Assembly (NCBI GenBank): GCA_029762535.1
Contig: JARVGK010000002.1
Span: forward strand, 73,603 to 137,602
DNA: 64,000 nt
Source of the DNA: Thermoplasmatota archaeon
GTDB lineage: Archaea; Thermoplasmatota; Penumbrarchaeia; Penumbrarchaeales; Penumbrarchaeaceae
Reading direction: 5' to 3'
Part shown: positions 13,542-53,482 of the stretch, piece after piece
Position numbering within the stretch: the stretch's first letter is position 1
Layout of the letters: each line of letters opens with the position of its first letter
Position numbers and translations under genes: made by a program
The notes under the pieces: generated by a model
Seen by the model: only the letters and a program-made list of their open reading frames with translations
What the model was told of the DNA's origin: nothing
The model's database searches: none

Positions 13542-13571
13542 TAATATTCTCCTGTAAAAATGCTGGTCAAT

Positions 13572-13740
13572 TGAACTTAACGGACGCGACTATGCGAAGT
13601 TTGCGAACGTAGTGAGCAAATTTGGGTGAGGGGCGGGCCGAGCCCCGAACCGCATAGTGGCGTGTTATTCGCCCCGAGCCGTAGGCGAGAGCGCAGCGTG
13701 GTCCGAAGTTATCCGAAGGATAACGAAGGAAGTTGAGGGG
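13572..13740. repeat. structured repeat element
   Basis: CTTAACGGACGCGACTATGCGAAGT...AAATTTGGGTGAGGGGCGGGCCGAGCCCCGAACCGCATAGTGGCGTGTTAT. The tail is GGCGAGAGCGCAGCGTGGTCCGAAGTTATCCGAAGGATAACGAAGGAAGTTGA. Confidence 0.65.
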
Positions 13741-13742
13741 GT

Positions 13743-14141: not shown

Positions 14142-14144
14142 AGA

Positions 14145-14429: not shown

Positions 14430-14469
14430 CTTACTATTTCATTTTTTCGGGTACTTGTAGACGATCACA

Positions 14470-14715
14470 TTAAACCCCCGAAATTGCGAATAACGTCCTG
14501 GGGATATGGGAAGTTGGCCGAAGGCCAATTTGGGTGAAGGGTCTGCAAGACCCGTAACCTCATATCCCCATGTTATCTTCCCCGAGCGATAGCGAGAGTG
14601 CAACGGGGTCGAGGCACGAAGTGCCGAAGAAGTTTGAAACCCTGCCGTAAATTCCGTTGTTGCCGTAGTTTTTTCTTACTCTATTCATCGTTCACGTTCT
14701 CCGTGGGGGTGTTCC
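14470..14715. repeat. structured repeat element
   Basis: Stem TCCTGGGGATATGGGAAGT...CCTCATATCCCCATGTTAT. Apex CCAATTTGGGTGAAGGGTCTGCAAGACCCGTAACC. Conserved tail ...CCGTAGTTTTTTCTTACTCTATTCATCGTTCACGTTCTCCGTGGGGGTGTTCCG. Confidence 0.6.
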
Positions 14716-14720
14716 GTTTA

Positions 14721-17318: not shown

Positions 17319-17319
17319 G

Positions 17320-19326
17320 TTATAACACTCCGTAGAAGCGTTTGTTTATTTCTTTGTCCTCGTCTGATACGCCATAATCCTCGTCATCAATTTCGTTGAA
17401 ATTAACATAAAGCTGATTTTTATCCAGACACTCAATTAGGAATGCCTTTTGGTTCTCCAAGTCCAAGTCCTTGAAATCTTGAGCATTTTCATCGAATTGC
17501 TTCGGATCTATTCTGTAACTAAGGAAAGCTTCTTTTTTCATCTTATCCCATATTGCCAATAAATCTTTTATTGTCTTTGCTTCTTGAATTTTATCCATAT
17601 AGGATTCATTCCATTTCATCAGTTCACAATAAATAAATTCACCACCACCTTCCCACTTTACATATTTTGAGATACCAGATTGATCATAATTTTCAATTTT
17701 CTCTATTAATTTACCCTTTGAGTTTGCATTTCCGATAACATTTTTTAATCTCATAAGCGAATCATTTTTACCATAATCCAATTGTTCTATGCCGAGATAT
17801 TTTCTACCCAACTTATGCGCAACTGCACATGTTGTACCACTACCTAAGAAGAAATCCAAAACAATATCTCCCTTATCAGTTCCCATTTCAATTATTCTCC
17901 TTAAAAGTTTTTCTGGTTTTTTACCACGTTTTAATTTAACATTACCTTCATTAGCAATTCCTTCCCAAGGTATATCCGTCCATATATTTGATAATAAATT
18001 TGTTGGAACGAGATTACCATCAATGTTTCTAACCTTGTTATTATAAAAAGTAATTTCTTTTCCATTTAAGATATATCTATCAGTTAAATTATCTCTTCGA
18101 TTAACAAATACTTTATCCAGATTCTTCAAAGATTCTTCCTTTATGTCTAATGTTTCCTTTCCAGCATCAATGTTTATTTCTGTAAATCGAAAGACTCTTT
18201 CCTTATTATTCAAGGCATAGTCCGCTAATTCAGATAAAGTACGATTTGTTCCTAATTCTTTTTTTAAATATCGACTATTTTTAACCTTAAACTTTTCCGC
18301 AATAATATCTTTAATATTTGAATAAGTCCAATTTGATGGGTTTTCTTCAATATTGTCTATCTGAAATGAATAATTTTCATCATAATTAGTTTCTTCGTAT
18401 TGAGTGATGTACTTCCACAACTTTTTAGACTTTGCATAAATTAATATATATTCGGCACTTTCAAAAACTCCCAAATTTACAGTTTTAAAACCAGACGGAG
18501 ATCGAGTTTTTATACTAATAAGATTAATGAAATTATTATCAAATATTTCATCTAGTAATATTCTTAATCTGGATACATGAATGTCGCTAATTTGAATGAA
18601 AATGGCCCCATCCTTACATAGTAATTCTCGTGCAATTTCTAATCTGTTTTTCATAAATGTAAGCCATGTTGAGTAGTTAAAACTATCATTATACTGAAAC
18701 TCATCATTCCCTGTATTGTAGGGAGGGTCAATGTAAATTAATTTAATTTTTCCAGCATATCTTTTTTTCAATGAATGCAAAGCAAGGAGATTATTACCTT
18801 TAATCATGATATTATCTGTTGTTTTAATTTCTTCTATGTTATGCTCTCCTTTTGCATCAATCCGTTTTAAACCAGTCAATACTTTAGGATCGAATAATCT
18901 GTCAATCTCATCAGGAGCAAGAATTTCATTCCAAAATATTTCTTTGCGATTTTTTTCTTCGGGATCTTCCATTCCGCCTTCCAAAACGCAATCTTTGTAT
19001 GGCCAGGATAGAACCACTTCACTACTTTTTGTTAGGTATTCGTTTTGTGTTGTAAGTCCAATCTTGTTTTTGAAAGTGGTGTACGAATCTGGTAAGAATT
19101 CTTTGTTATCAACGAATTTCATGAATTTTTCTTTGTCAAAAATGATTGCTTTATTTACAATTTTAAAGAAATGCACTTTTAATTTTTCGTTTTCAAGAAG
19201 GAGGGAAATCAGCTCATCATCGAGTTTAAGACCAAGTTCGATTATTTTATTTTTCAATAATTTATCATCTGAAACTAAACGTTCATCCTTTTTTAATGTG
19301 TCAATCATTTCATCAATTAACGTCAT
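17320..19326 (-). CDS. Type III R-M DNA methyltransferase (Mod; beta-class N6-adenine/N4-cytosine MTase)
   Basis: 668 aa. Catalytic motif IV IDPPYNTGND precedes motif I FFLGSGTT, the beta-class order typical of Type III Mod. Its start overlaps the upstream ATPase stop (ATGA). Confidence 0.7.
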   Translation of the reverse strand: MTLIDEMIDTLKKDERLVSDDKLLKNKIIELGLKLDDELISLLLENEKLKVHFFKIVNKAIIFDKEKFMKFVDNKEFLPDSYTTFKNKIGLTTQNEYLTKSSEVVLSWPYKDCVLEGGMEDPEEKNRKEIFWNEILAPDEIDRLFDPKVLTGLKRIDAKGEHNIEEIKTTDNIMIKGNNLLALHSLKKRYAGKIKLIYIDPPYNTGNDEFQYNDSFNYSTWLTFMKNRLEIARELLCKDGAIFIQISDIHVSRLRILLDEIFDNNFINLISIKTRSPSGFKTVNLGVFESAEYILIYAKSKKLWKYITQYEETNYDENYSFQIDNIEENPSNWTYSNIKDIIAEKFKVKNSRYLKKELGTNRTLSELADYALNNKERVFRFTEINIDAGKETLDIKEESLKNLDKVFVNRRDNLTDRYILNGKEITFYNNKVRNIDGNLVPTNLLSNIWTDIPWEGIANEGNVKLKRGKKPEKLLRRIIEMGTDKGDIVLDFFLGSGTTCAVAHKLGRKYLGIEQLDYGKNDSLMRLKNVIGNANSKGKLIEKIENYDQSGISKYVKWEGGGEFIYCELMKWNESYMDKIQEAKTIKDLLAIWDKMKKEAFLSYRIDPKQFDENAQDFKDLDLENQKAFLIECLDKNQLYVNFNEIDDEDYGVSDEDKEINKRFYGVL

Positions 19327-21803
19327 TTCTTTTCCTCCTTATTATTCGAAATTAAATTCCAGTTTACGCTTCCACAATTACATCTTACGCCACTTTGTTT
19401 CATTCCATCTGCTGTAATTTTCAATATACCACCACAACTATGACATGAAAAGAGATAATATAAATCTTGAAATGCCTCTTTTATAGGTCGAAAGTCTTTA
19501 TCACTAAAGTTTATCCAATTATTAAAATGAACGTTTGCATTAATTCCCCATTGTTCAGCATATGTGCGTTTATAAATGCTAGAACGCATTGAATCTAATT
19601 CTTCAAATTTTGCCGTCTTTTCTGATTTTTCCCAGGAAACTGATGATTTTTTAGCCTTTTTAATTAAGTCCTTATATCCATCCATTAATGGTATTGTAAA
19701 ATCACCAAGATCTAGCTGGCCGTTTAATTTGTATCGTACTCGTATCTGTAATGAATCACACACTAGCCCAAAATACTCTTCCAAACCGCGTCTTAATCTC
19801 GAAGCAGCAGAAGGAACATCGTTTCTTGTCAAATCTTCTTCAATTTTACTCCAGAGGTCTGCTTGAAGATTTACTTGAGGCCCTGTATCAACTTTCCAAT
19901 TATAGAATTCAACCATGCAACTCTTATTATCAACAACTCCTTCACTTCTCATTTGATTAGCCCATGTCTTATCATGGGTTGTGATTAAAAATTGTCTGTT
20001 TGGGAAATTTGATGCAAGCACGCGACAAATATCTCGCCTATGATTCGAATCCACAGACATTATTACATCATCTAAGATAATGAGGTCAATAAGACCTTCT
20101 GCCAAACGTTCAGATAGAGCCAAATATAAACAAAGCCCCATACTATCTTGATGACCTTCACTGTGGAGGGCTTGTGGAGAAAAAGCCCCTCGGCCATAAA
20201 AATCAACTTCAAATTTTAATGCCGCCCCATCTGGTGAAATAGTCGCGGAAAAATCTTTTTCGTCTGAACCATGTAATTCTTTATATAATTGCACAAAGCG
20301 ATCATTTACATCTTTGTAAAGATTTCCCAATATAGTATCTCTGGAATATTCAAATGTATTTAACAATATCTCTGCTTTTTTATATGAGATACTTGCGTTT
20401 TTAAAATCATTTTTTGCTTTTTCAAGACCTTTTAAATTTTCTTCAAGGCGTGTTAATGTATCCCACGCAGTTTGTTCAGGGGTTATCGGTGGCGCTTTGG
20501 TTTTAACAATTTCTATTAGAGTTTGAAGATTTTGTTTAATTTCCTCAGAAATAAGCATGTGTTTTACTCTGTCGCTATCAAATTCGATCAATGGATATTT
20601 TTCGAGTGGATTAGCTAATGCTATGGATAACTGATTCAAATCTGACGAACATGTTTTCAATTGGATGCTCCATTCCTTTTCCTCAATTTTATTTAATACC
20701 TCAATTATTTTATTTATGCTTCCTCTTGTATTGTTCACACGCTTTGATATGGAATCGGACAAAGATGTAATTCTGTTTCTTTGTTGTGATATTTCTTCAA
20801 TATCAGTCAATTTTGAGGTAAGATATTCATCTAATTTACCGCTTGGCCACTGTGTATCACACAATGGGCAGTTACCCGTGTCATCGATCATAGATTTTCC
20901 AAGTTCAATTAATTGAAATCGATTGTATGTTTTCAATAATTTCGGATTCGATTTTATAGAGTTTAGAAGATTTCTAAGTTCTTTATCAAATTCAATGATT
21001 CCTTTTTGATTCTTTTCGTCAAAGGAATTATGAATATTTTGAATATCTTTTTCAAATATAGTAAGATTGACATGATTGTCGTTGATAATACTGGTAGGTG
21101 GCGTAAGGGCCTTTTTTAACGTATCTGAAGAAACCGAATTCAATTCATTACTTTTTAATGTTTTACGTAATTGATTTACGTAATCCAGTAGCATCTTTTC
21201 ATTAAATGATGTTGTTTGAATTGTTGCGTTAACCTCACCTTTTTTCTCATCTATTGCTTCTTCTTTTGTCTGCTTTTCTCTTTTAAAAGTATTTTCAATA
21301 TTTACAAATGCTTTTCTTATTATTTCAATGTCTGATATATTTAATAATGCTTGAATCTCCTGGGCACGTGTACTACCATCAGAGGTAATATATTTTAAAA
21401 TTTCTCGTCTTGTTAATACATGTTCTCCCCTCGATGCAAGGGATAAAATGGGTTCAAGATTAGGTAAATATTTTTCATCAGATACAACTAACTTAGTGGG
21501 TTGTGCCATATCTCTTTTTATTTCAATAGGAACATTAATTTTTGGAAATTGAATAACTGCACGTACAATAGCATCTTTTGGCTTGTGATCAATATGTGGG
21601 CCACATTCTTTCAATTTGATATTGCGAGTTCCCTCTCCCTTTAAACGAGAAATTCGACCTGTTAAGAGGAAATCAATGGCATCAACAACAGCACTTTTCC
21701 CTGAACCATTTGGCCCCCATATTACTATATTTTTTCCTTGGGGCGTTAGTTTTATATGGGTTATACCCCGCACATTTTCAATTTCAAGCTCAATCAGTTT
21801 CAA
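19323..21803 (-). CDS. SMC/RecF-like ABC ATPase with long coiled-coil insert and C-terminal Zn-ribbon
   Basis: 826 aa. Walker A GPNGSGKSAVVDAI. Signature-like SEGHQDSMGL. Walker B LIILDDV. H-loop TTHD. C-terminal CHSCGG...RCNCG. Confidence 0.65.
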   Translation of the reverse strand: MKLIELEIENVRGITHIKLTPQGKNIVIWGPNGSGKSAVVDAIDFLLTGRISRLKGEGTRNIKLKECGPHIDHKPKDAIVRAVIQFPKINVPIEIKRDMAQPTKLVVSDEKYLPNLEPILSLASRGEHVLTRREILKYITSDGSTRAQEIQALLNISDIEIIRKAFVNIENTFKREKQTKEEAIDEKKGEVNATIQTTSFNEKMLLDYVNQLRKTLKSNELNSVSSDTLKKALTPPTSIINDNHVNLTIFEKDIQNIHNSFDEKNQKGIIEFDKELRNLLNSIKSNPKLLKTYNRFQLIELGKSMIDDTGNCPLCDTQWPSGKLDEYLTSKLTDIEEISQQRNRITSLSDSISKRVNNTRGSINKIIEVLNKIEEKEWSIQLKTCSSDLNQLSIALANPLEKYPLIEFDSDRVKHMLISEEIKQNLQTLIEIVKTKAPPITPEQTAWDTLTRLEENLKGLEKAKNDFKNASISYKKAEILLNTFEYSRDTILGNLYKDVNDRFVQLYKELHGSDEKDFSATISPDGAALKFEVDFYGRGAFSPQALHSEGHQDSMGLCLYLALSERLAEGLIDLIILDDVIMSVDSNHRRDICRVLASNFPNRQFLITTHDKTWANQMRSEGVVDNKSCMVEFYNWKVDTGPQVNLQADLWSKIEEDLTRNDVPSAASRLRRGLEEYFGLVCDSLQIRVRYKLNGQLDLGDFTIPLMDGYKDLIKKAKKSSVSWEKSEKTAKFEELDSMRSSIYKRTYAEQWGINANVHFNNWINFSDKDFRPIKEAFQDLYYLFSCHSCGGILKITADGMKQSGVRCNCGSVNWNLISNNKEEKK

Positions 21804-21993
21804 GTTCTTCCCTCGAAGTAGTTTTTAATACGCTGATAATTTTTTTAGTATCAGCTAATTGTCCTGTTGAATTAAGTTCACGAAGCTTATTGATGGTCAC
21901 CACATTAAATTCATCTTTATCATTGAGGTCTGAAAACATTTTATCAAGTATGTGGTCAATCAATGAAGATGTTTGTATTGTTTCGGGAGTCAT
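21790..21993 (-). CDS. small 67-aa protein, function unknown (operon partner)
   Basis: ORF MTPETIQTSSLIDHILDKMF.... Its ATG overlaps the RHH TGA (ATGA), and its 3' end overlaps the ATPase start by 14 nt. Confidence 0.45.
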   Translation of the reverse strand: MTPETIQTSSLIDHILDKMFSDLNDKDEFNVVTINKLRELNSTGQLADTKKIISVLKTTSREELETD

Positions 21994-22130
21994 TTATTTA
22001 CCTCCTTCATCTGTTCTTCCATCATAATTTCAAATTGTCGGGATATGAGCCACCCCTTCTTCTTACAGAATCCTTTGTATCGTTCGTAAAGGTCTTCATC
22101 AACACTGAGGGTTACGTTCTTTGAAGGCAT
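21990..22130 (-). CDS. ribbon-helix-helix small regulator, 46 aa (third paralog)
   Basis: MPSKNVTLSVDEDLYERYKGFCKKKGWLISRQFEIMMEEQMKEVNK. Confidence 0.55.
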   Translation of the reverse strand: MPSKNVTLSVDEDLYERYKGFCKKKGWLISRQFEIMMEEQMKEVNK

Positions 22131-22161
22131 GATAATCACATTCATCTCCAAATGTCAGCAA

Positions 22162-22174
22162 ATGTATATAAGTA
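22162..22174 (-). promoter_or_regulatory. putative TATA box for the RHH-ATPase-Mod-Res operon
   Basis: Minus-strand CTTATATAC about 35 nt upstream of the RHH ATG. Confidence 0.3.
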
Positions 22175-22189
22175 TTCGCTTTTTCCGTT

Positions 22190-22620
22190 TCTATTCGTTG
22201 TTCGGAACACCCCCCACGTCCATAGAGTAAGAAAAAATTTGGGTATTCGCTTTGCGAATCCGTTTAACATCCGTTAGCCGAGAGTCTGGACTTGTCCAGA
22301 TTTTGGTGGTTCTTTCCGTCTTGTTTCCGTTAAACGAAGGCAACAACGTCATGAATTTACGGTCTCCTTTTCATAGGCATGGTTTCAAATTGAAGATAAC
22401 GGAACGCGGGTATGCGAAGTGAATATGTTTCCAGTGCGGTTCCTCAGCAGAGTATTCATTTGGGAGAGCGAGTGCAACGAAGCGAACCGCATACCCGCGT
22501 GTTAAGTCCTCCGAATGAAGTTATCCTACGGATAACGAAATGAGAATGCAATGAGATCGAGCACCGCAGACCGTTAGGTTGAGGAGCGGAGAAGTTGGCC
22601 AGCCAAGAACGTTGTTCGGG
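22190..22620. repeat. structured repeat elements (two units)
   Basis: 22200-22330: AAAATTTGGGTATTCGCTTTGCGAATCCGTTTAACA. 22390-22620: GATAACGGAACGCGGGTATGCGAAGT...CATTTGGGAGAGCGAGTGCAACGAAGCGAACCGCATACCCGCGTGTTAAGT. Followed by GAAGTTATCCTACGGATAACGAAATG and the tail ...GAGCGGAGAAGTTGG. Confidence 0.6.
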
Positions 22621-22832
22621 ACACGGTGGATTTTTTACTACCAATCTACCCCACAAGGGTTATAGGTCGAGGGTGTCTTGCTTGTAAGTCGAGGGGTTTG
22701 AAATACTTGTCAAACCAAGATTTGACCATGGCGAGGTTTACTATCTTTTGGGTTATCGTTCTGACCATTATTATTTTAGAGTTGCAATATGATTTGTTCA
22801 AATTTTCTGATGAATTCGTAAGTAAAAGAGAT

Positions 22833-25800
22833 TCAATCCTCCTCCTTTATTGGTTTGATGGTTCGAAGGTTCAAAGAAAAAGATCGCCCCTCGATATTTT
22901 CTTCTGGGATATCATCATATCTCGTTATAATAACCTTATCATCAACTTTATCACTGAGGTTTTCCACATTCCATAACTCCCATCGATCCCCACCTTCTTC
23001 CTGACTTAAAAGGAATTCCACATATTCCCTAGAGGTTATGTTTACAATTTTGGAAGAACCTAAATGTGCCTTGACTTCGATCTTAATTTGTTCTCTATCA
23101 CGAATAGCAATGATATCATAGCCTGGATTCTGTTTGGGCATTTGTTCAACTTCGAATCCTTTTAATTCTAACTCTCTTTGAGCAAATGATCTTCCTTTAG
23201 TTTCTATCATCTCATTGTCCTCATATGATGTTCTGTTCCCAGATTTGCCACCACCACCGCCACCAGATGAACCCTTAGTTTCCTCATCAACTCTCTCCTC
23301 TGTATTAACTTCATATTCAGAGTCGTCATCCTTTAATTGAATACCTTCATCTTCCTCTGAATCTGGAGTTCTTTCTTCTCTATTTTGCTCATCAAGTAAT
23401 TTTTCCTTATTGTCTTCTTCACTTTTTGTCGGTTGTTTCGGCTTTTTAGGAAGCATACCAGGAAATGGCTTCTTCGATGGTGGAGTTGACTTTTGTTGAT
23501 CAGAGTCTTTGTGTTTTACATAGTCGTTATTGAATTCTAAAAAAGAGATATCGATCTGTTCATCTGATATTCCGCTGGAAGTCAATTTTTCTCGTCTTTC
23601 GTAATCATTATTACACCTTAAAAGATTTTCATAAGTGTCGGCTTCTCCTGGCACTCCTAAATAAAACGATATTGATCGAGATATTGTAGTTACACTTTGT
23701 TTATCTTCACTTATGAATATTGTTGAACCAACAATGTAAAAATCTCCGGATATTTCGGTTTCATACTTATCAAGTAGTATCAATTTTTTTCGAATTTCCT
23801 TTTTTACTTTAACTTTGATATTTTTAATTCTTTGAATCAATTTCTGATGATCTGATAGTTTATCCGATCTTATCACATATATGTATGAAAGACTGTCAAT
23901 TAGATTTTTCGCCAATTCCGGTTTCAATTGTTTCTCATCATCATTTGTCTCAATTATTTCTTCCTTCAATATATTCTTATCACTAATTTGACGTTTTCCA
24001 AAATACTTACTTACAAACTGGTGATATCTTCTAGATATATTGAAAAAATAAACATCATTATTAAAAGCATTTTTAATCTCCACATCATCATTAATGAATA
24101 TCTCTTTGCTACTTATAATTTGAAATATATTGCTTCTTTCACATAAAAGGGGACAATCATGAAGCAATAATTCAGGAAGTGCTACCATCAAACTATTTGT
24201 TGTATCTAAACATCTTTCGTAGATTTTCATTATTTTGAATCTTAATTCTCGATTATCATTTATATCTTCATCTGAAATGAATTTTATTAATAGGTTGGAT
24301 AATATTTCTTTCCATTCTTCAGGTTTTAATTCATCAATATTTGTTCTAATAATTTTCACTTTATTCTTTAACCAATGAAAAATATTATCCTTTGAACTCT
24401 CAAAAAGATTTAAATTGATAACTGGTAATAAATACCCTATTTCAAAATTATCTTTTTCATTTAATATCCAACATTCTTCCAATGGTTTAGGATCTAGATA
24501 ATGTGTAAGAGGAGGTATGAACTTTGTTTTTAAATCAAACCACCATGATGCATCTGAGTTTCCATAATATAATGCTCTGTTGTATGGTCGATAGTGTACT
24601 CGAATATTCATATATTCTTCATAGTATTCCCAATTGTTTGCTATTAACTTTAATAAGGATATTTTAGATTTTTCAGGCAATTCGTCTAAATTTATTTTAT
24701 CAAATCTTTTATTATAACTGATTTTTTCAACATTATTATAATCTTCATTCACATGTATCGGAATTTCTTCTGTAGAAATTAATCGGGGAAATGTTTTACA
24801 CCCTAACCATCTTAAGATATCTTGATCAATTATTTTCTCTAAGCTATTGTTTTCTTTTTGTACCCATTGTATATCGTAATGATTGCGAAATAATGAGTTC
24901 AAATCACTATTGCCCCATTCTTTTCCCATATATCCAAATTTGGCTTTTATCCATATAACATCTTTTTTCCCCTTCCTTCTAGATGGAATTGGACAATTTC
25001 TAATTCCTACGGGTGCATTTTCTTCTTTCATCAACCATTTATTTTTATAGATATATCGATAATATATTGAGGGATTATCTTTTTGATTCTTGTTCCTACT
25101 ATCCCAATAATTCTCAATAGCTTTAATTAAAGCTTTTTCTGTAACATTTTCAATTCTCTCTACACCCAATGTTGCTAGGATTTTGTTGACTGAATGATGG
25201 TTTTCCAATAACTTATCCCCAAACCATTCATCAACAAACACTATCGGCATCCATTTAGGTACGAGATTTTTCTTGTCTTGATCAGATTTCCAAGTGATGA
25301 TTTGACCCTTTGAATTGGCAATTGATATCAGATGATTACCAACAGGAAGTATTGGTAGACTTTTTATAATCTCAATTTTCTCCTCTTCATTGATTTCATC
25401 TGAATCATGATTAGCCCAATTAGAGAGCCATTTCCAACAAGTCCAAATCCAATCAATATTTCCTGTATTTTTAGATGACTCTTCATTGATTACACTTAGT
25501 AACGTATTATCATCAATCAAACTGCAGTTCATGGATTTTAAAACGTTATATGAAACTTCATTCTCCTCATAACTGAAATGTAACAAGTTGTCACTAATAT
25601 TTGATGTATTTAAAATTTTACGGGCGTTTGTCAAATCACATGTTGTTGATATAAGCTTTATATCAGAGAAATTTAATAATTTTTCTCCATTAATATTGCC
25701 GAATTTTAAAGTGTTCTTTGAATAATCAACAATCACATCCCAAAATAATTTGGTGATTTCATGACTGTTTCTCTCCTCAAATGGTGATAACAATGTAATA

Positions 25801-26930
25801 TTATTTGCTGGATCACCTTTTAAATATTGCTCATCCACAAATTCAACTAATGTATGAACGAGATTATCCATTATCCATTTATTTAGATTATTATTCTCTA
25901 TCGGAAGAATTTCCGTTCTATCACTTTTTACAAAAAAATCCGCATGAAGAAGTATTGGAACTGGGGAGTAGTGTTTTGTCGGATAATACACATGGATTTT
26001 TGGGTAATCGGTCATAGATCTGATTTTACCATCAATGACATATGTACCAACCAGGAAATTAATTCCATCTTCGATAATTCTCGCATTATCTTCTTTATCA
26101 AGGTTAGATAAGAAATAAGGTGGAATCATATCACCCGACATCGTTTTTCGTTTGATTTTCCATTTCGTTACATCTTCAACGCCATCAATGGTATCATTGA
26201 TTACATTTTCCTTATCTATTGTTATTTTCCTTAAGGTTTTACTTGAACCAACAGCATCAATTATCTCCAACATTCTAATATGATGAAATGTTAGGAGAGT
26301 ATAATTTTTCAATGAAATTTTATCAAATAATACTTCGTTATCAATTTCCTCAAGATAATTCAATTTAACTACAGTTGACCAATCCGATTGAGAGGTTAGA
26401 TATTGATCATTCAAAGAAATATCATCCCAGGATATCGAAAAAGGGATCCATTGATATGGTACATCATCATCTGGAAAACCATTATTTTGTAACCATTGTT
26501 TCGCCTTTTCAAATGAGAATTCTACTCCCTCTCCTCCTATGCTAAATATTTGTGGATTATTTGAAATCTCATAAACAGCTTTGAATCCTAATCCCTTTCT
26601 TCCGATGGTCCCAGATTTTTTAATTGAATAATCCGTTCCACACAAAGATTCAATAGCATCTGGCTGTAATCCTACTCCCTTATCCAAGATATAGACCGAT
26701 TTATCGGTCAACAAAACCTTTACCTCTTTAGATTCTGCATCATCACAATTTTGGAATAATTCGTAAAACCATCGTCCAGTGTGGTCAGAAGTTACTCTTT
26801 CTGCACTTCTTGTGTCTCTGATGATTCGTTTGGGATCTCCTTTATATGTCCCTTGTAATTTTTGGTTGAATAAATCAATTGCCTTTTTAATAGGTTTCAA
26901 TATACTATCACCATCGACATACACAATCAT
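22833..26930 (-). CDS. 1,365-aa protein: N-terminal sacsin/Hsp90-like GHKL ATPase domain, long middle region, Gly-rich linker, C-terminal DUF3883-like (PD-(D/E)xK-fold) domain
   Basis: N-terminus FYELFQNCDDAESKEVKVLL and GRKGLGFKAVYEISNNPQIFS match the sacsin-repeat ATP-binding signature. C-terminus is GSSGGGGGGKSGN followed by NPGYDIIAIRDREQIKIEVKAH (the EVK motif of DUF3883). Very AT-rich. Confidence 0.6.
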   Translation of the reverse strand: MIVYVDGDSILKPIKKAIDLFNQKLQGTYKGDPKRIIRDTRSAERVTSDHTGRWFYELFQNCDDAESKEVKVLLTDKSVYILDKGVGLQPDAIESLCGTDYSIKKSGTIGRKGLGFKAVYEISNNPQIFSIGGEGVEFSFEKAKQWLQNNGFPDDDVPYQWIPFSISWDDISLNDQYLTSQSDWSTVVKLNYLEEIDNEVLFDKISLKNYTLLTFHHIRMLEIIDAVGSSKTLRKITIDKENVINDTIDGVEDVTKWKIKRKTMSGDMIPPYFLSNLDKEDNARIIEDGINFLVGTYVIDGKIRSMTDYPKIHVYYPTKHYSPVPILLHADFFVKSDRTEILPIENNNLNKWIMDNLVHTLVEFVDEQYLKGDPANNITLLSPFEERNSHEITKLFWDVIVDYSKNTLKFGNINGEKLLNFSDIKLISTTCDLTNARKILNTSNISDNLLHFSYEENEVSYNVLKSMNCSLIDDNTLLSVINEESSKNTGNIDWIWTCWKWLSNWANHDSDEINEEEKIEIIKSLPILPVGNHLISIANSKGQIITWKSDQDKKNLVPKWMPIVFVDEWFGDKLLENHHSVNKILATLGVERIENVTEKALIKAIENYWDSRNKNQKDNPSIYYRYIYKNKWLMKEENAPVGIRNCPIPSRRKGKKDVIWIKAKFGYMGKEWGNSDLNSLFRNHYDIQWVQKENNSLEKIIDQDILRWLGCKTFPRLISTEEIPIHVNEDYNNVEKISYNKRFDKINLDELPEKSKISLLKLIANNWEYYEEYMNIRVHYRPYNRALYYGNSDASWWFDLKTKFIPPLTHYLDPKPLEECWILNEKDNFEIGYLLPVINLNLFESSKDNIFHWLKNKVKIIRTNIDELKPEEWKEILSNLLIKFISDEDINDNRELRFKIMKIYERCLDTTNSLMVALPELLLHDCPLLCERSNIFQIISSKEIFINDDVEIKNAFNNDVYFFNISRRYHQFVSKYFGKRQISDKNILKEEIIETNDDEKQLKPELAKNLIDSLSYIYVIRSDKLSDHQKLIQRIKNIKVKVKKEIRKKLILLDKYETEISGDFYIVGSTIFISEDKQSVTTISRSISFYLGVPGEADTYENLLRCNNDYERREKLTSSGISDEQIDISFLEFNNDYVKHKDSDQQKSTPPSKKPFPGMLPKKPKQPTKSEEDNKEKLLDEQNREERTPDSEEDEGIQLKDDDSEYEVNTEERVDEETKGSSGGGGGGKSGNRTSYEDNEMIETKGRSFAQRELELKGFEVEQMPKQNPGYDIIAIRDREQIKIEVKAHLGSSKIVNITSREYVEFLLSQEEGGDRWELWNVENLSDKVDDKVIITRYDDIPEENIEGRSFSLNLRTIKPIKEED

Positions 26931-27252
26931 ACTTTAATCGTGGACCTTTGTTTATTTTTGCGGTCATAAACATCATTTTCCGAACTTGTTCTATGCTTTT
27001 ACCATATTTATAAGCTTCTTTGCTTTCACCCAAGCTCCATGTTATTACACCCTCAACCTATTCTTTCCAAAAAATCCACCGTGTCTTTTTACCCCGAAGT
27101 CTGGCTGGCCAATTGGACTTAACTCCTATCATGCGATGTGTTGGATCGGATACTTTCACTTTCACATGGTTATTGCGAAGATTTATTAACCCGGGATCCT
27201 CCTTTGGTTTCATGGGATCATACCCGGACATGGATAAGGAGATGGTGAATAT

Positions 27253-28053
27253 ATGAATGTTTCCGAAAAGGGCAGGGAGAGAATGCTGGCTCGGCTGGAT
27301 GAGGAGATGAGGCTTCGGAAGTATTCGCCTGCGACAATGAAGCAGTATCTCGGATTCATCAAGAGGTTCCTTGATTCCGGATCCGATCCCCGGAGCTTCA
27401 TGCTGGGTCTCTCCGACAGATGCTCACGATCCACGGTCCGATCCGCTTACTTCTCCCTGACGTTCTTCTATCGATATGTCCTTCATCAACCCTTCGACGA
27501 GGGGATCCCCCTCGCAAAGCGCGGTGGGAGGCTTCCAACGGTACTCAATCGCGAAGAGGTCCATTCCATGATCGATAGCGCCGTGAACGTTAAGCACAAG
27601 GTCCTGCTGATGCTTCTGTATTATGGTGGCCTAAGGCTCAGCGAGGCTCGATCCCTGCGCTGGGAGGGTCTCGATTTCGAACGGGGGATCATCCATATAA
27701 AGCACGGGAAGGGGGATCGGGATCGGGTCGTCTTTCTCCATTCCAGGCTTGCAGAGGCGCTTTCCGTATTGGGGGTTAAAAGCGAAGGTTGCGTATTGAT
27801 CTCTTCGGTCTCCAAAGGAGCCTATACACCAAGGGGTATCCAGTTGACTGTCGCGGATATCGCTAAACGGGCGGGGATAAAAAAGAGGGTCAGTCCCCAT
27901 ACGCTTCGGCACAGCTTCGCGACCCATCTCCTTGAGGCCGGGGCTGACGTCAGGCACATACAGAAGCTTCTGGGGCACAGGAACCTGTCGACAACACAAG
28001 TATACACCCACATCGCCGACCGGGAAATGATCAGGATAGTTTCCCTGCTCTGA
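27253..28053 (+). CDS. tyrosine-type site-specific recombinase (Xer/XerA-like)
   Basis: 266 aa. R..., HTLRHSFATHLLEAGADVRHIQKLLGH, and the catalytic Y in STTQVYTHI. No IntI-type extra domain. GC is like the host. Confidence 0.75.
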   Translation: MNVSEKGRERMLARLDEEMRLRKYSPATMKQYLGFIKRFLDSGSDPRSFMLGLSDRCSRSTVRSAYFSLTFFYRYVLHQPFDEGIPLAKRGGRLPTVLNREEVHSMIDSAVNVKHKVLLMLLYYGGLRLSEARSLRWEGLDFERGIIHIKHGKGDRDRVVFLHSRLAEALSVLGVKSEGCVLISSVSKGAYTPRGIQLTVADIAKRAGIKKRVSPHTLRHSFATHLLEAGADVRHIQKLLGHRNLSTTQVYTHIADREMIRIVSLL

Positions 28054-45122: not shown

Positions 45123-46334
45123 ATGGGAAGCAGCATGAAGAAGCGGCGGGGAAAGCAGCCGGCCAAGCCCGATATGGGAGAGGCCATGAAGGAGAGGTCG
45201 ATATCCCTCAAGGGAAGGCAGAACTCGACCATGAACATCCCGATGATATACAGAAGGACGTTCGAATGGACCGAGGAGAACGTGATGTTCAGGCCCGTGA
45301 ACAAGAGGAGCTTCATAGTGAGCCGGCCCGATATACCGGATGAGGAGTTCAGGGCCGAGAACCACCTAAAGAGGGACCTGGACCTGTCCGATCTACCATG
45401 GTATCATAAGGAGAGGGCCCGATCCGAAACGGACGATCCCTCCGACATGGAAGAGCTCAAAGAGATGCTTCTTTCCATGTCGCTCAAGGACAGATATGTG
45501 GACATCAACATCAATAGGCCCGCGGACAGCGGGCTCAACAGGAAGCTCAGGAGCGATCTCGAGAGGCTCTCGAGGGATCTGGGCTTCAAACTGCATTTCA
45601 AGGACCCCGTATACACATGCTCCTTCCTCTATCCGAAGCACAGCATGGTACAGATGGAGGCGATGTGCTCCGAACTACTTCTGAGATCCATCGATGCGGC
45701 ATCGTCCTTCGCCGATTCGGTGTACGAACTGGATATAGAGGGATCGGGATCCGCCCTCTCGGACCTTCTGTACTCGATACAGACCGTTGAGAGCTCGATA
45801 GACGCAGTTTTCACCGATTCGCTGAACCTGCTCTGGGATCCGCCCCCGCTCGAGCCGCCGGGCCATTTCCTGCTGATACAGGCTCACGAGGCGGTGAACG
45901 ATGAGATAGAGAATATGGCCAAGGACTCTTTGAGGTTCCTGACTCTGCTCCCGCGCAATGACAGGGACATATGCGATCTGATATGGGACGAGTTCCTGCA
46001 GGTATGGAGGACATCCGTTCTTCCCTCGTTCGGCCTGTACAGGCGGCTGATCGCCGGAGAGGGGGATCCGGAACAGAGGGCCCTTGAGAGGATACGCACG
46101 CATCGCATATGGAAGGAGAGAGAACCTTCCCCGCATACGGATTACATATCGAACATGGCTCAAAGGGTGGAGTCCACCGCAGCCAGCAGATCGGGGAAGG
46201 AGAGGATACTCGCCACCTCAGACTGCATTAAGGCGATGCAGTGCCTGTTCTCGATTAACGATTCCGCCTCCCGGATAGAGAGCATATCGCAGGTTGCAGC
46301 GACGATAATGCTATACCTTTCGAGATCGGCATAG
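45123..46334 (+). CDS. hypothetical protein
   Basis: 403-aa ORF with host-like composition and no recognised motif. Confidence 0.4.
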
Positions 46335-48328: not shown

Positions 48329-48368
48329 CGCATCACATATGAATCCCGGGATGCCGAGTGGATGATCA

Positions 48369-49197
48369 ATGGGATCCAAATCCCTATCGTCAATTTCTAG
48401 TGTTACATCAATGAGTGTTACTTTGATGAGAAGATGTTGGTGCTCCCGACGGAACCTTTGGATCGTCCTCACATTGACGGGAAATCAGATCCAAAGGTTC
48501 AGGAAAATGCCCAACGGGCATTTTTCGTATAAAAGCAATGTTAAGCATCCATTTCCGGGAACTTTACTATTTGACGGAAGGAAATGGATGAGAGAAGGGA
48601 GCACACTTGTAAGCAATGAAGATGTTGGTGCTCCCGACGGAATTTGATGCTTGGAAAGTCACCTGTGACTTTCCGCATCTCGCGAGATGCTGATCGTCAA
48701 ATAGAGATACGCATCTCACGAGAACCCGGACTGGTCAGTGATCAATTGGTGGGATTCAAATCCCTACCGTCAAATCCTAGCGTTACATCAAGGGGTATTA
48801 CATCTATGATAAGATGTTGGTGCTCCCGACGGAACCTTTGGACTGTCCATAATATGACGATAATTCAAGTCCAAAGGTCCAGGAAAATGCCCAACGGGCA
48901 TTTTTCGTATAGAGGCAATGTAAAGCATCCATTTCCGGGAACGGTAATATTTGACGGAAGGAAATGGATGCGAGAAGGGAGCACACATCTAAGCAATGAA
49001 AAATTTGGTGCTCCCGACGGAATTTGATGCTTGGAAAGTCACCTGTGACTTTCCGCATCTCGCGAGATGCTGATCGTCAAATAGAGATACGCATCTCACG
49101 AGAACCCTGACTGGTCAGTGATCAATTGGTGGGATTCAAATCCCTACCGTCAAATCCTAGCGTTACATCAAGGGGTATTACATCTATGATAAGATGT
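48369..49197. repeat. tandem repeat array (A 188 bp + B 192 bp) x2 in front of tRNA-Glu; each unit begins with the tRNA 3' end (TGGTGCTCCCGACGGAA)
   Basis: Unit starts at 48438, 48626, 48818 and 49006, then the tRNA at 49198. Unit B holds perfect palindromes GCATCTCGCGAGATGC and GGAAAGTCAC-CTG-TGACTTTCC, plus a T-arm-like GGGATTCAAATCCC. Unit A holds the hairpin AAAATGCCCAACGGGCATTTT. Confidence 0.8.
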
Positions 49198-49273
49198 TGG
49201 TGCTCCCGACGGAATTTGAATCCGTGTCGCTGGCTCGAGAGGCCAGCATGATTGGCCACTACACTACGGGAGC
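49198..49273 (-). tRNA. tRNA-Glu (anticodon CUC), CCA encoded
   Basis: Minus strand: GCTCCCGTAGTGTAGTGGCCAATCATGCTGGCCTCTCGAGCCAGCGACACGGATTCAAATCCGTCGGGAGCACCA. Anticodon stem CTGGC/GCCAG, loop CTCTCGA, T-arm ACGGA-TTCAAAT-CCGT. Confidence 0.75.
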
Positions 49274-49333: not shown

Positions 49334-50998
49334 TCACTTGCCTTTGACCTTGGCCCAGGTGTCCCTCAGCGTTATGGTCCTGTTGATCACGAGCCTGTCG
49401 GGATCGCTGTCCGGATCGATGCAGAAGTAACCTAACCTCTCGAACTGGAAACGTGAGAGATGTGGAAGCTTCCCGACGATCTGCTCCACCTTGCACCCCT
49501 TGAGGACCTTCAGCGAATCATGGTCGATATACTCTGTGAAGTCCCCGGGCATCGAGAGGGGATCCTCAACCGTGAATAACTTGTCATACTGCCTCACCTC
49601 GGCATCGATCGCATGTTTGGCCGACACCCAGTGCAGGGTGGACCTCACCTTCCTGCCGTCAGGGGCATCCCCTCCCCTGGAGGCGGGATCCACCTTGCAC
49701 ACTATCTCTTTCACCTCGCTCCCGTCCTTGACCACATTCGTGCAGGTGACGAGATACGCGTTCCTCAGCCGGACCTCCCTTCCTGGAGCCAGCCTGTAGA
49801 ACTTCGGGGGTGGGTCCTCCATGAAATCCTCCCTTTCGACATACACCTCGCCTGAAAAAGGGACCTTCCTCCTGCCAGCGGATGGGTCCTCGGGATTGTT
49901 GATGACATCCATCTCGTCCTCCCCTTCGTAGTTCTCGATCCTCATCAGCAGGGGGTCAAGTACGCCCATGTAGCGGGGAGACGTCCTGTTCAGGTCCTCC
50001 CTGACGGCGTGCTCCAGCGTCTCTATGGCGATCGTGGAGTTAATCTTCGCGACGCCTATCCGGGAGCAGAAATCCCTGATGGACGCGGGAGAGTAACCTC
50101 TTCTTCTCATACCGCTTATCGTGGGCATCCTGGGGTCGTCCCAGCCGGATACCAGCTTCTTCCGGACCAGTTCCAGGAGCTTCCTCTTGGACATGACGGT
50201 GTATGTCAGGTTAAGCCTTGCGAACTCTATCTGCTGGGGATGATATATCTCAAGTTCGTCCAGGAACCAGTCGTAGAGCGGCCTGTGGTTCTCGAACTCC
50301 AGAGTGCATATCGAATGGGTGATACCTTCTATCGAATCCTCCAACCCATGAGCCCAATCGTACATGGGATAGATGCACCATTCGTCCCCGGTGTTGTGAT
50401 GCGTCGAGTGCAGGATGCGGTACATGACCGGATCCCTCATGTTCATGTTGGGATGCGACATGTCGATCCTGGCCCTCAGGACCTTCTCTGCGTCCCTGAA
50501 CTCCCCTTTTCTCATCCTCTCGAACAGCTCTAAGTTCTCCTCAGTGCTCCTGTTCCTGTACTCGCTCTCTATTCCAGGGGCTGTCAGCGAACCTCTCATT
50601 CTGGATATCTCATCGGCGGTATGGTCATCGACGTAGGCCTTGCCCTTCTTGATCAGGTCCACTGCCCATTTATACATCTGCTCGAAGTAATCCGAGGCGA
50701 AGTACAGCCTTTCCTCCCAGTCGAAACCCAGCCATCTCACGTTATCCTTGATCGAACTGACGTATTCCTCCTCCTCCTTGGCGGGGTTGGTGTCGTCGAA
50801 GCGCAGGTTGCATTTTCCCCCATATTCCCCTGCGATCCCGAAGTTCAGGCAGATCGACTTCGCATGCCCTATGTGCAGGTATCCGTTGGGTTCGGGCGGG
50901 AACCTGGTATGTATCCTCCCATCGAACCTGCCCGAGGCGTTGTCCTCGTCTATGATCTCCCTTATGAAGTCCTTCGGGACCATTTTTTCCTCGACCAT
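49334..50998 (-). CDS. glnS: glutamine--tRNA ligase (GlnRS), bacterial/eukaryotic type
   Basis: Signatures: [23 protein letters not shown] (HIGH), [42 protein letters not shown] (KMSKS), [17 protein letters not shown], and the C-terminal anticodon-binding RLGYFCID. Collinear with E. coli GlnRS as recalled from memory. Confidence 0.8.
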
Positions 50999-51975: not shown

Positions 51976-52027
51976 GTAGGATTTGATCTTCCTCCAGTTC
52001 GAACTGGTCGGTTTAATTATAATGTAA

Positions 52028-52399
52028 TGGTAGCCCCGCTAAAATTTCCCCGAAATTTTAGAACACAAGAAAACGGATCCCCACCCCGAAAGAGGCTATG
52101 ATTGTGCAGCCACTATTCCATATAGCCTTCACATTAATAGAGATGGAATAGTGGTAGCCCCGCTAAAATTTCCCCGAAATTTTAGAACACAAGAAAACGG
52201 ATCCCCACCCCGAACATGGCTATGATTGTGCAGCCACTATTCCATATAGCCTTCACATTAATAGAGATGGAATAGTGGTAGCCCCGCTAAAATTTCCCCG
52301 AAATTTTAGAACACAAGAAAACGGATCCCCACCCCGAAAGAGGCTATGATTGTGCAGCCACTATTCCATATAGCCTTCACATTAATAGAGATGGAATAG
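52028..52399. repeat. 3 x 124-bp tandem repeats in front of tRNA-Gln, each starting with the tRNA 3'-terminal 11-mer (TGGTAGCCCCG)
   Basis: Copies start at 52028, 52152 and 52276, then the tRNA at 52400. Copy 2 differs by GAACATGG versus GAAAGAGG. A T-arm-like CCAGTTCGAACTGGTCGG sits in the opposite orientation at about 51997. Confidence 0.8.
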
Positions 52400-52475
52400 T
52401 GGTAGCCCCGACCAGATTCGAACTGGTGACAAGAGATCCAGAGTCTCCTATGCTAGACCGCTACACTACGGGGCT
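52400..52475 (-). tRNA. tRNA-Gln (anticodon CUG), CCA encoded
   Basis: Minus strand: AGCCCCGTAGTGTAGCGGTCTAGCATAGGAGACTCTGGATCTCTTGTCACCAGTTCGAATCTGGTCGGGGCTACCA. Anticodon stem GGAGA/TCTCT, loop CTCTGGA, T-arm ACCAG-TTCGAAT-CTGGT. Confidence 0.75.
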
Positions 52476-52596
52476 ATGCTGTCGGGGCGAGGGATTATTC
52501 AAAATATATATTACCCTTGCGGTCGGGGTAGATCCCTTCAGGATAACATCTCCTGCGATAATGTTAATAAGAAGCAGCATGTTCGCCTCCCCGATA

Positions 52597-52827
52597 TCAA
52601 TGGCCGAGGAAAAAGAGATCAAACTGCCAGACAACATAATAAAAGGGCTTTTCTTCCTTCTGATGCTCGCCGGGATCCTCCTGCTGGTCATCTGGACCGC
52701 CGTGGCCCTCATCCCCCAGGGGATATTCTTCGACCTGGGTCTCTACTCCATAAGCTCGGTCATGATCCTAGGCGGCCTAACAGGATGGCTCCTCTACTCC
52801 CACAGGGAGAAGCTCCAGTCCTCCTGA
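52597..52827 (+). CDS. small membrane protein (2 TM), hypothetical
   Basis: C-terminal part of ORF 52399..52827. The 5' portion of that ORF overlaps the tRNA and is discounted. Confidence 0.25.
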   Translation, partial: SMAEEKEIKLPDNIIKGLFFLLMLAGILLLVIWTAVALIPQGIFFDLGLYSISSVMILGGLTGWLLYSHREKLQSS

Positions 52828-52876
52828 TCCATCTCCGTTACTTACGATCCATTCCACATTCGCGGCGGGATCGCAA

Positions 52877-53482
52877 ATGGGATCGGAACATGTTAACGGT
52901 TCGTTCGACAGTATCGCTTCCGCGGCCGGATGGCTGCACCTATCCGAATTGGACCCGTCCAATTTCGGCAACATCTCGGTCCTGCATCGTAAGTCCTCAT
53001 GTACCGCTCCAGCCCTTGAGCGCTTCGATGTTCCTGGAGACCAAACAGAGCTCATCGATTCATTACTGTTCATCACGCGGGCGGGGTCCACGATGAAGGA
53101 GGTCATGGAACGCCCGTTGTTGAACATCGGTGCATATCGTATCGAACAAGGTTCCTCGATGTCCCTCATCTATGGCGTCGGACCGCCATCCTCCGAGATC
53201 GCCGCCCATCTGGAGATCTACAAGGCTCTCCTCTTGGACGAAATCTCGATCCTGCACTTCCACGATGATCCCCTCCTTGAGAGGATCTCCTCCATTTCGG
53301 ATCCTCCGGACTGGATACGTATGATACCAGAGCTATTGCCGGGATCCCTCGAGCTCGCCAAGACGTCCGCGGAGGAGGCCTCGTCATCCCGCCTGCTTGT
53401 CTGGAGGGGGCATGGATTGACCGTGATATCCGAAAGCATCGAGGACGCAATCATAATGGTGGAAAGGGCAATGGCCATCTAG
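52877..53482 (+). CDS. class II aldolase/adducin-family protein
   Basis: GNISVL and HGLTVISESIEDAIIMVE resemble the class II aldolase signatures. Confidence 0.4.
   Translation: MGSEHVNGSFDSIASAAGWLHLSELDPSNFGNISVLHRKSSCTAPALERFDVPGDQTELIDSLLFITRAGSTMKEVMERPLLNIGAYRIEQGSSMSLIYGVGPPSSEIAAHLEIYKALLLDEISILHFHDDPLLERISSISDPPDWIRMIPELLPGSLELAKTSAEEASSSRLLVWRGHGLTVISESIEDAIIMVERAMAI

Follow-up and report, generated by a model that had tools for sequence, protein, structure and literature searches.

Hairpin-rich units ending in copies of tRNA 3' ends, arrayed behind two tRNA genes of a Thermoplasmatota archaeon: candidate gene-less attachment-site cassettes

In the stretch of DNA analysed here (64 kb from a Thermoplasmatota archaeon, hereafter the window), two tRNA genes lying 3 kb from each other, tRNA-Glu(CUC) and tRNA-Gln(CUG), are each followed by an array of short tandem units. 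A unit consists of a non-coding, hairpin-rich body of 90-190 bp and a core, by which we mean a copy, particular to that unit, of the last 11-24 nt of the tRNA gene beside it; the units sit between the intact tRNA and what looks like its old trailer. The reading that is tentatively favoured, in a sense that it falls short of being probable, is that these units are gene-less attachment (att) cassettes, for which the copies of the tRNA 3' end serve as the recombination points of gain, loss and duplication. An intact tRNA, cores that are specific for the unit type and track the sequence of the tRNA, variation by whole units, new units in the tRNA-proximal position and a unit genealogy incongruent with that of the hosts are all features of recombination at an att core located in a tRNA end, here brought down to cassettes roughly as large as a bare attP.

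Behind tRNA-Glu(CUC), the order of the units is B2 - A2 - B1 - A1 - B0p, read on the tRNA strand and with a core at every joint. The features are the following, with hp standing for hairpin:

49198..49273, minus strand: tRNA-Glu(CUC), whose last 17 nt (49198-49214) are core copy 5 (ARAGORN, Rfam)
49023..49197, minus strand: unit B2, alpha type, closest to the tRNA; T-arm-like hairpin at 49131-49144, 12-bp stem with a 20-nt loop containing TTGACG at 49059-49102, 9-bp hairpin at 49033-49054
49006..49022, minus strand: core copy 4, with identity to the tRNA reaching 22 nt (TCAAATTCCGTCGGGAGCACCA)
48835..49005, minus strand: unit A2; anti-core GTGCTCCC (plus strand GGGAGCAC) at 48977-48984, hp1 (12-bp stem, 23-nt loop with CCGTCAA) at 48925-48971, hp2 (A-run, hairpin and T-run) at 48884-48904, hp3, abutting the next core, at 48834-48878
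48818..48834, minus strand: core copy 3, 17 nt
48643..48817, minus strand: unit B1, alpha type; hairpins at 48751-48764, 48679-48722 and 48653-48674
48626..48642, minus strand: core copy 2, with 22-nt identity to the tRNA
48455..48625, minus strand: unit A1; anti-core at 48597-48604, hp1 at 48546-48590, hp2 at 48504-48524, hp3 at 48452-48500
48438..48454, minus strand: core copy 1, 17 nt
48330..48437, minus strand: B0p, a truncated beta-type B unit abutting the stop codon of a DUF362 gene
48369-48647 and 48644-49027, plus strand: two antisense open reading frames (ORFs) made by the repeat, not genes

The tRNA gene, with its CCA encoded, is recognized by ARAGORN and as an Rfam tRNA (62 bits), and the plus-strand complement of its last 17 nt, TGGTGCTCCCGACGGAA, is found exactly at 48438, 48626, 48818, 49006 and 49198, i.e., with a spacing of 188/192/188/192. 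As 0.01 matches would be expected by chance and none of 100 shuffles gave five, the initial annotation of this DNA was right in stating that the 3' 17-mer of the tRNA recurs four more times downstream. Tandem Repeats Finder describes the array as having a 380-bp period (2.2 copies, 92% matches). The identity to tRNA-Glu extends over 22 nt behind the B units and 17 nt behind the A units, and across all the loci discussed below its length depends on the unit type (A 17, B 22, C 11, D 24 and E 15 nt). The structure is nonetheless not the simple (A-B)x2 duplication that had been proposed, since there is a third, truncated B unit and the divergence of the copies is unequal: B2 and B1 are 99.5% identical, while A2 and A1 share only about 85-87% (86.7% with the cores, 85.4% for the bodies only), which makes a single block duplication impossible. 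B0p, whose identity to B1 varies from about 73 to 77% with the span compared, is probably the oldest unit or the ancestral trailer, and it takes the lower edge of the array from 48369, where it had first been placed, to the DUF362 stop codon at about 48330. The suspicion that the two ORFs called inside the array are artefacts of the repeat was well founded, given that they have no Pfam match, are absent from a collection of 15 billion proteins, lack any homologue among 5.8 billion proteins and are in a reading frame that is not kept in two of the relatives (L090 and L096, see below).

The array behind tRNA-Gln(CUG), as well as the arrays of the relatives and the compensated hairpins, was missing from the initial annotation. 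It consists of three 124-bp C units, each of them ending in CGGGGCTACCA, which is the last 11 nt of tRNA-Gln (period 124, 3.1 copies, 97%), and contains four exact cores; within the window, cores are confined to the two tRNA loci. In every C unit, 12 bp pair around a loop of 21 nt, and a hairpin of 10 bp lies immediately 5' of the core. Its features are:

52400..52475, minus strand: tRNA-Gln(CUG), CCA encoded, whose last 11 nt (52400-52410) are a core (ARAGORN, Rfam)
52039..52399, minus strand: C unit bodies at 52287-52399, 52163-52275 and 52039-52151
52276-52286 and 52152-52162, minus strand: CGGGGCTACCA cores between the C units
52028..52038, minus strand: last copy of the tRNA-Gln core
52028-52410: span of the array, including the core embedded in the tRNA
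51990..52027, minus strand: D0p, the old trailer of tRNA-Gln, in which an AT-rich stretch precedes the T-arm and 3' region of the tRNA in inverted form (AAACCGACCAGTTCGAACTGG)

Between the two tRNA genes lies the gene of a bacterial-type glutamine-tRNA ligase (GlnRS; 49334-50998, minus strand), and its homologues were used to retrieve the related loci (designated by L numbers) from Thermoplasmatota metagenome-assembled genomes (MAGs) and metagenome contigs. Their arrays, sorted by the identity of GlnRS to that of the window (97% at the amino acid level for the closest ones), are as follows:

L005, L006 and L007 (97%): B-A-A-B0p behind tRNA-Glu; D-D-C-C behind tRNA-Gln
L006, unit D: about 112 nt, ending in a 24-nt core; absent from the C-C-C array of the window
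L089 (88%): B-A... and then the contig end behind tRNA-Glu; for tRNA-Gln, the contig begins inside a C unit
L095 (82%): tRNA-Glu outside the contig; for tRNA-Gln, the contig begins inside a D-like unit with a compensated hairpin
L090 (80%): B-A-flank behind tRNA-Glu; no tRNA-Gln within the fetched locus
L091 (79%): only the 5' part of an A-like unit behind tRNA-Glu; one unit of about 180 nt with a 15-nt core behind tRNA-Gln
L096 (77%): a single A-type unit behind tRNA-Glu; no tRNA-Gln within the fetched locus
L009 (68%): tRNA-Glu outside the contig; no repeat behind tRNA-Gln

The same tRNA locus thus carries homologous but differing arrays in the relatives (B-A-A-B0p, B-A or A alone). It had been anticipated that units occurring nowhere else, together with an identical array in relatives, would indicate a stable structural or terminator repeat rather than integration scars; the outcome is mixed, in that the units are found nowhere else in the data searched and the arrays of the relatives are not identical. 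The arrays of close relatives differ by whole units, with breaks located exactly at the cores (window, L005, L006, L089, L090 and L096), and the body lengths across genomes are 171, 171, 171 and 188 nt for A and 175, 175, 172 and 178 nt for B. Furthermore, where the tRNA differs, the cores match the tRNA of their own genome. This is the case of L090, whose tRNA-Glu has a different T stem that is followed by its cores (TCAAATCCCGACGGGAGCAC, TCCCGACGGGAGCACC; TCCCGACGGGAGCAC). In L096, the core (TTCCGTCGGGAGCACTT) takes in 3 nt of the trailer, which indicates that it was copied from genomic DNA and not from the mature tRNA. The D0p trailer is common to L006, L095 and L009, and to the start of unit D.

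The genealogy of the units conflicts with that of their hosts. The GlnRS genes of the window and L005 share 95.0% of their nucleotides and 88.5% of their third positions, and the tRNA-distal units of both behave as orthologues: B0p is 90.7% identical to the terminal partial unit of L005, and A1 is 98.5% identical to an A unit of L005 over its first 133 nt, with hp3 replaced (for A1, there is also a figure of 89.5%). The tRNA-proximal units, by contrast, are new or exchanged. The B-alpha unit of the window and the proximal B-beta unit of L005 are only 71% identical, whereas the B-alpha units of the window and L089 reach 96.6-97.1% in spite of GlnRS genes that share 84.6% of their nucleotides and 66.7% of their third positions, so that they are far more alike than neutral sites allow. 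Old units in the distal part and new ones beside the tRNA is the order expected if additions happen at the core of the tRNA itself. In addition, the bodies of A and C are unrelated to the trailer that they precede, which identifies them as insertions and not as copies of the trailer, and in several genomes the last element of either array is a partial unit or trailer that they have in common, meaning that A and C were inserted upstream of an old trailer.

The bodies of the units share a defined anatomy. Starting from the preceding core, an A unit is made of a 21-24-nt spacer, the anti-core, hp1 (12-bp stem with a 23-24-nt loop containing CCGTCAA), the motif ATACGAWAAAA, hp2 (A-run, stem and T-run), hp3 (8-13-bp stem with a 23-29-nt loop starting with TGAT, abutting the next core) and the next core. 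A B unit comprises a short hairpin, TTGACGG plus a T-arm-like hairpin that is an inverted partial copy of the T arm of the tRNA, a 12-13-bp stem with a 20-24-nt loop carrying the CGTCAA motif reversed, a 9-10-bp hairpin and the core. The sequence elements listed in the initial annotation are all present, i.e., the palindromes GCATCTCGCGAGATGC (48675-48690 and 49055-49070) and GGAAAGTCA-cctg-TGACTTTCC (48653-48674 and 49033-49054), the T-arm-like GGGATTCAAATCCC (48751-48764 and 49131-49144) and the terminator-like hairpin AAAATGCCC-aac-GGGCATTTT of unit A (48504-48524 and 48884-48904). However, the conserved structure of unit B is not the 16-nt palindrome but a 12-bp stem (48679-48690 with 48711-48722) round a 20-nt loop.

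Across genomes, the stems keep their position and length, whereas their sequence is altered by compensatory substitution, as exemplified by the two arms of hp3 in A1 (CCTTTGGATC/GATCCAAAGG), A2 (CCTTTGGACT/AGTCCAAAGG), L005 (CCTTTTTTCC/GGAAAAAAGG) and L090 (CTTTTTCCC/GGGAAAAAG). Paired cells amount to 96.4% in the A units and 99.3% in the B units, with 10 pairs changed on both sides in each type and none of 500 shuffles reaching values as high; controls in which the stems were slid gave 31-57%. Counting perfect hairpins (stem of at least 9 bp, loop of 3-30 nt), 14 of the 24 in the 64-kb window fall within the 1.2 kb of the two arrays. A perfect stem of at least 8 bp closing a loop of 16-28 nt with CGTCA in it forms a module of which the window has four instances, all of them in the tRNA-Glu array, versus six in 751 kb of bacterial control loci. 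This hairpin exists in both orientations and is also found behind tRNA-Gln in L091 and L009. In the tRNA-Gln unit of L091, a hairpin of the same kind stands directly 5' of the core, with a loop (TTGATCTTCCGTCATC...) resembling that of A1 (TGATTTCCCGTCAATG...), so that the module is common to cassettes on different tRNAs, and in L009 it accompanies an exact 15-nt inverted copy of the tRNA 3' region in the tRNA-Gln trailer.

According to the cassette reading, the units would come and go through recombination inside the copied tRNA 3' end, with the tRNA restored at each event, which is the logic of tRNA-targeting integrative elements and of the accretion of cis-mobilizable elements (CIMEs). Afterwards, cores or whole units would slip or cross over unequally, and the copy number would drift. 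The hairpin adjacent to the core and the CGTCAA loops, in either orientation, would be the determinants that a recombinase supplied in trans reads, perhaps as extruded or single-stranded hairpins, with the T arm and acceptor strand of the tRNA serving as the natural equivalent of the site; hp2 may also stop convergent transcription. A hairpin that always abuts the core, as the T arm abuts the acceptor strand, a loop motif in both orientations and stems that are free to vary suggest the recognition of structure plus loop by a trans-acting protein, possibly on extruded or single-stranded DNA. Of the options raised by the initial annotation, very small mobile units or an unusual att-site array is the one that fits best. 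Its proposal of an integration footprint holds to the extent that the cores behave as if they were recombination joints and that the arrays differ by whole units, and fails as regards the remnants of serially integrated large elements (see below).

Several observations weigh against this reading. There is no integrase beside either array, and the only recombinase among the scanned proteins of the window is an Xer-type tyrosine recombinase located 20 kb away (27253..28053, plus strand; Pfam Phage_integrase, 1.6e-40), which scores 184.7 bits with NCBIfam XerA_Arch, under the cutoff of 220, remains as well under the integron-integrase cutoff and has 4a8e (XerA), 2a3v (IntI4) and 5hxy (XerA) as its closest PDB entries. 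No autonomous element, virus or plasmid with the same arms could be found in the IMG/VR, phage and plasmid collections, nor any copy of a cassette at another locus in 199 kb of related DNA. The tRNA-B-A order is kept across about 80% GlnRS identity, more like constrained vertical inheritance than ongoing mobility. To our knowledge, covarying hairpin stems are no feature of the att arms of tyrosine integrases; they could reflect RNA structure or palindrome-templated mutation instead, and units could also pass between lineages by ordinary homologous recombination that uses the conserved flank of the tRNA.

With regard to the searches behind these negatives, exact-pattern scans of IMG/VR with units A and B, with a gapped motif of A and with the 17-mer yielded nothing or chance matches in high-GC coding DNA, and blastn of an A+B unit against plasmids and phages gave no match; the plasmid or virus matches for which the initial annotation advised looking were thus not encountered in these collections, which may lack the elements of this lineage. 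A metagenome scan with the gapped A motif produced one chance match, in a glycosyltransferase gene, in a collection that evidently does not contain these contigs. A scan of genome contigs by GlnRS brought almost exclusively bacterial GlnRS, and L009 was the one useful locus among them. An extension of the contig past both ends of the window brought no further tRNA.

Among the other explanations, the one that best withstands the data, albeit a doubtful one, is that the units are structured RNAs. The tRNA would be transcribed with a long trailer of hairpin domains, each ending in the acceptor 3' strand and CCA and trimmed or tagged by the enzymes of tRNA 3'-end maturation, with the anti-core and loop-loop pairings organizing the fold and the changes in the arrays being by-products of unequal recombination. 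The preservation of the hairpins by compensatory change (96-99% of cells paired in A and B units) is what such RNAs would display, and the same applies to the anti-core, which is invariant and complementary to GGGAGCAC of the core, to the B loop and the hp1 loop of A, which are complementary over 10 nt in the window (9 of 10 in L090, with covarying flanks), to a T.G pair on the tRNA strand of the B-alpha stem, to the absence of a T-run directly behind the tRNA in the array-bearing genomes and to the persistence of ATACGAWAAAA and other non-hairpin motifs down to the 77% relative. Conversely, folding energies and z-scores are alike on both strands, the C.A mismatch in hp1 of L096 becomes a G.U pair on the opposite strand, and the loop motif appears in both orientations. 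T5-T7 runs directly behind the tRNA, ahead of the modules, in L009, L091 and L096 count against an obligatory co-transcription. In Rfam 15, only the two tRNAs reach the gathering score and a relaxed search returns sub-threshold miRNA and snoRNA noise, so that no family matches. No tRNA-like minihelix can be formed either, since the acceptor strand lacks a 5' partner in unit C and the part of the core that is paired differs from one anti-core to another, and the incongruent genealogy of the units is left unexplained.

It is unlikely that the units are inert scars, that is, the leftovers of large elements that integrated serially in the tRNA, lost their interiors and were duplicated locally, without any present function. 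Perfect palindromes can persist without selection via template-switch correction, and the distal units diverge at nearly the neutral rate (B0p and A1, at the above-mentioned 90.7% and 89.5%, against 88.5% at third positions). Integration classically leaves repeated tRNA 3' ends behind (PMC4383910; PMC5704250), and tandem integration is known in archaea (PMC8371274). Such leftovers do not account, however, for unit lengths that are fixed and recur across genomes, for the B-then-A order maintained up to the 80% relative and the A unit standing alone in the 77% one, nor for A units which, at overall identities of about 50-65% in the 77-80% relatives, keep three perfectly paired hairpins and their motifs. 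No remnant of coding sequence exists in the units, and the same architecture is found at two tRNAs with unrelated unit sequences.

A plain tandem duplication, in which slippage copied a segment from inside the tRNA into the trailer with no integration involved, is improbable. The identical pair of A copies in L005, the near-identical B and C copies of the window and the beginning of unit D, which is like that of the native trailer, are what it predicts. Nevertheless, besides the bodies of A and C that do not derive from the distal trailer and the unequal divergence of the B and A pairs, it would require a separate left breakpoint inside the tRNA 3' region for each of four to five unit types, and it does not foresee a B-alpha unit common to the window and a more distant genome.

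Even less probable is that the units are remnants of miniature transposons or casposons (solo terminal repeats), with the tRNA 3' end as target-site duplication. Casposons do target tRNA 3' ends, insert in tandem sharing the duplicated target and leave solo terminal inverted repeats, and they are known from a member of the Thermoplasmatota (PMC4779613), but the duplicated length varies here between 11 and 24 nt by unit type instead of being fixed at 14-15, the units lack mutually matching terminal inverted repeats, and no Cas1, PolB, TnpA or TnpB was detected among the window proteins scanned, which are not all its ORFs.

Other candidates were discarded: copies from mature tRNA or tRNA-primed reverse transcription (trailer bases occur in the L096 core, and position 58 is not where the identity ends), permuted or split tRNA genes (just 6 nt of the tRNA 5' end are present, without D or anticodon arm), tRNA genes decayed in a tandem array (upstream of the cores, nothing resembles the tRNA body), C/D or H/ACA guide RNAs (no conserved boxes), a palindrome-associated transposable element (PATE) of the IS200/IS605 type or a TnpB guide-RNA scaffold (no target motif is shared, and a duplication would not result from insertion), the bridge RNA of IS110 (in L090, core and loop motif do not covary), a diversity-generating retroelement (substitutions are not adenine-specific) and CRISPR (the would-be spacers are homologous to one another).

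How do the arrays compare with known systems? By analogy, they come closest in architecture to CIME accretion and to the intergenic mosaic elements of Neisseria (NIMEs), and in logic to the cassette arrays of integrons. What defines each of these is wanting in the arrays: CIMEs have an integrase or parent element, NIMEs a free-standing repeat that is dispersed, and integrons attC with intI. Integron arrays include ORF-less cassettes, their attC sites conserve structure over sequence, and the newest cassette lies beside a fixed attachment point. The units described here are likewise short, end in a recombination site with conserved structure and have the newest one beside the anchor, but R/L boxes are missing, as is GTTRRRY at the junctions (...GG|TTCCGTC, ...CA|TCAAAT and ...AG|CGGGGC), there is no adjacent intI, attI or Pc, the junction is the 3' end of a tRNA and each unit has several hairpins. 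CIMEs stack at tRNA 3' ends in the streptococcal systems of ICEs (integrative and conjugative elements) and IMEs (integrative and mobilizable elements) (PMC5704250); similarly to the arrays, they lack integration genes, keep both att sites, lie in tandem at the tRNA 3' end and vary in composition between strains. They are, however, kb-sized decayed ICEs or IMEs with recognizable parents and a known integrase, in contrast to units of 90-190 bp in an archaeal host, with covarying hairpins, no coding remnant and no parent found.

In NIMEs, dRS3 repeats, which are the integration site of a prophage recombinase, flank RS units (PMC1797815), resulting in non-coding arrays where a short constant repeat alternates with diverse units of 50-150 bp whose number varies by strain. 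dRS3, an inverted repeat of 20 bp, stands free and has hundreds of copies genome-wide, unlike the constant repeat of the present arrays, which is the 3' end of the neighbouring tRNA, differs per tRNA and has been encountered only behind tRNA genes. Islands targeting tRNA and tmRNA genes (Islander, PMC4383910), among them those of archaeal tyrosine recombinases with tandem occupancy of a tRNA (PMC8371274), also regenerate an intact tRNA, leave a displaced direct repeat of its 3' end (four extra copies for Glu and three for Gln in the window) and are polymorphic in presence with boundaries at the repeats, yet they are kb-long and carry an integrase and cargo, and the arrays have neither. As regards casposons, the likeness lies in the tRNA 3'-end target, the tandem insertion sharing the duplicated target and the short non-coding remnants (PMC4779613), and the unlikeness in their fixed 14-15-bp duplication and terminal inverted repeats. 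A limited literature search found no description of gene-less hairpin cassettes delimited by tRNA ends in archaea.

If the cassette reading proved true, no smaller integrative DNA targeted to tRNA genes would be known to us: a bare att site, persisting and turning over in an uncultured archaeal lineage. This would point to a recombinase that reads hairpin structure beside a tRNA end, with a possible use as a programmable integration tool, in a field, the biology of archaeal mobile elements, that is poorly known outside a few cultured groups. A bolder extension, to which only a small probability can be given, is that Archaea possess a tRNA-anchored and structure-reading recombination system whose recombinase recognizes a hairpin followed by the acceptor 3' strand of the tRNA; in the cassettes, any stable hairpin, with or without the CGTCAA loop, would replace the T arm and the core would be swapped to match different tRNAs. 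Such a system would be a functional analogue of integron attC recombination or of Xer-exploiting elements, with gene-less cassettes of about 100-200 bp. Were the RNA explanation the correct one, the units would represent a new class of tRNA-linked structured RNAs. In either case, arrays of this kind break short-read assemblies at tRNA genes and give rise to spurious ORF calls.

The breaks are visible in the data of the window itself. The Logan contigs of its own sample (SRR24067139) stop at both arrays, with breaks at the tRNA-distal edge of the Glu array and the proximal edge of the Gln array, and several contigs of the relatives start or end inside an array or hold N gaps there. This supports the existence of the arrays independently and, at the same time, makes the copy number of the near-identical units uncertain. 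The short-read assembly of SRR24067139 breaks also at position 30 of tRNA-Glu (contig ends of these breaks: L001, L002 and L101). This last break implies that another tRNA-Glu gene, probably that with the UUC anticodon, has about the first 33 nt in common with this one; if its 3' end is the same, this paralogue could carry cassettes too.

The tRNA loci offer some further observations. The CCA is encoded in both tRNA genes of the array-bearing clade (window, L005, L089, L090 and L095) and is not encoded in L091, L096 and L009, the relatives with one unit or none (3' ends compared: window 49198-49200 and 52400-52402; L091 7863 and 5725; L096 7211; L009 4811); it may have been brought in by the core copies of the cassettes. 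An inverted copy of the T-arm and acceptor region of tRNA-Gln (L009 4790-4840, minus strand; window 51990-52027; L095 85-125) covaries with the tRNA (TGACCAG versus CTGGTCA in the tRNA, and CCGACCAG versus CTGGTCGG) and is present even in the array-free genome. In the window (48504-48524 and 48884-48904), L090 (about 8040-8095) and L096 (about 7316-7356), hp2 always stands between an A-run and a T-run, and the next gene beyond it is convergent in all three contexts; hp2 may halt transcription arriving from either direction and so protect the tRNA from antisense transcripts that read through. In L091, the A-like unit of tRNA-Glu is cut short and followed (8006-8434) by a gene with an HTH_29 domain, a fold known from IS630-type transposases, and an insertion may have destroyed the cassette.

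Two ORFs of the window, at 52476-53096 (plus strand, 206 aa) and 45123-46334 (plus strand, 403 aa), belong to no Pfam or NCBIfam family. The first overlaps the promoter region of tRNA-Gln and may be spurious, because L006 has there only an 82-aa gene on the opposite strand. The relatives of GlnRS at 60-70% identity come from many bacterial phyla and those at 72-100% from Thermoplasmatota MAGs, a distribution that suggests an old transfer into this archaeal group. Further away, the stretch from 12459 to 28053 resembles a defence island, with the Xer-type recombinase at its end and the following genes:

12459-12881: PIN-domain gene
14721-17318 and 17320-19326: res and mod genes, respectively, of a type III restriction system
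19323-21803: SMC/AAA ATPase
22833-26930: HATPase/NOV_C protein of 1365 aa

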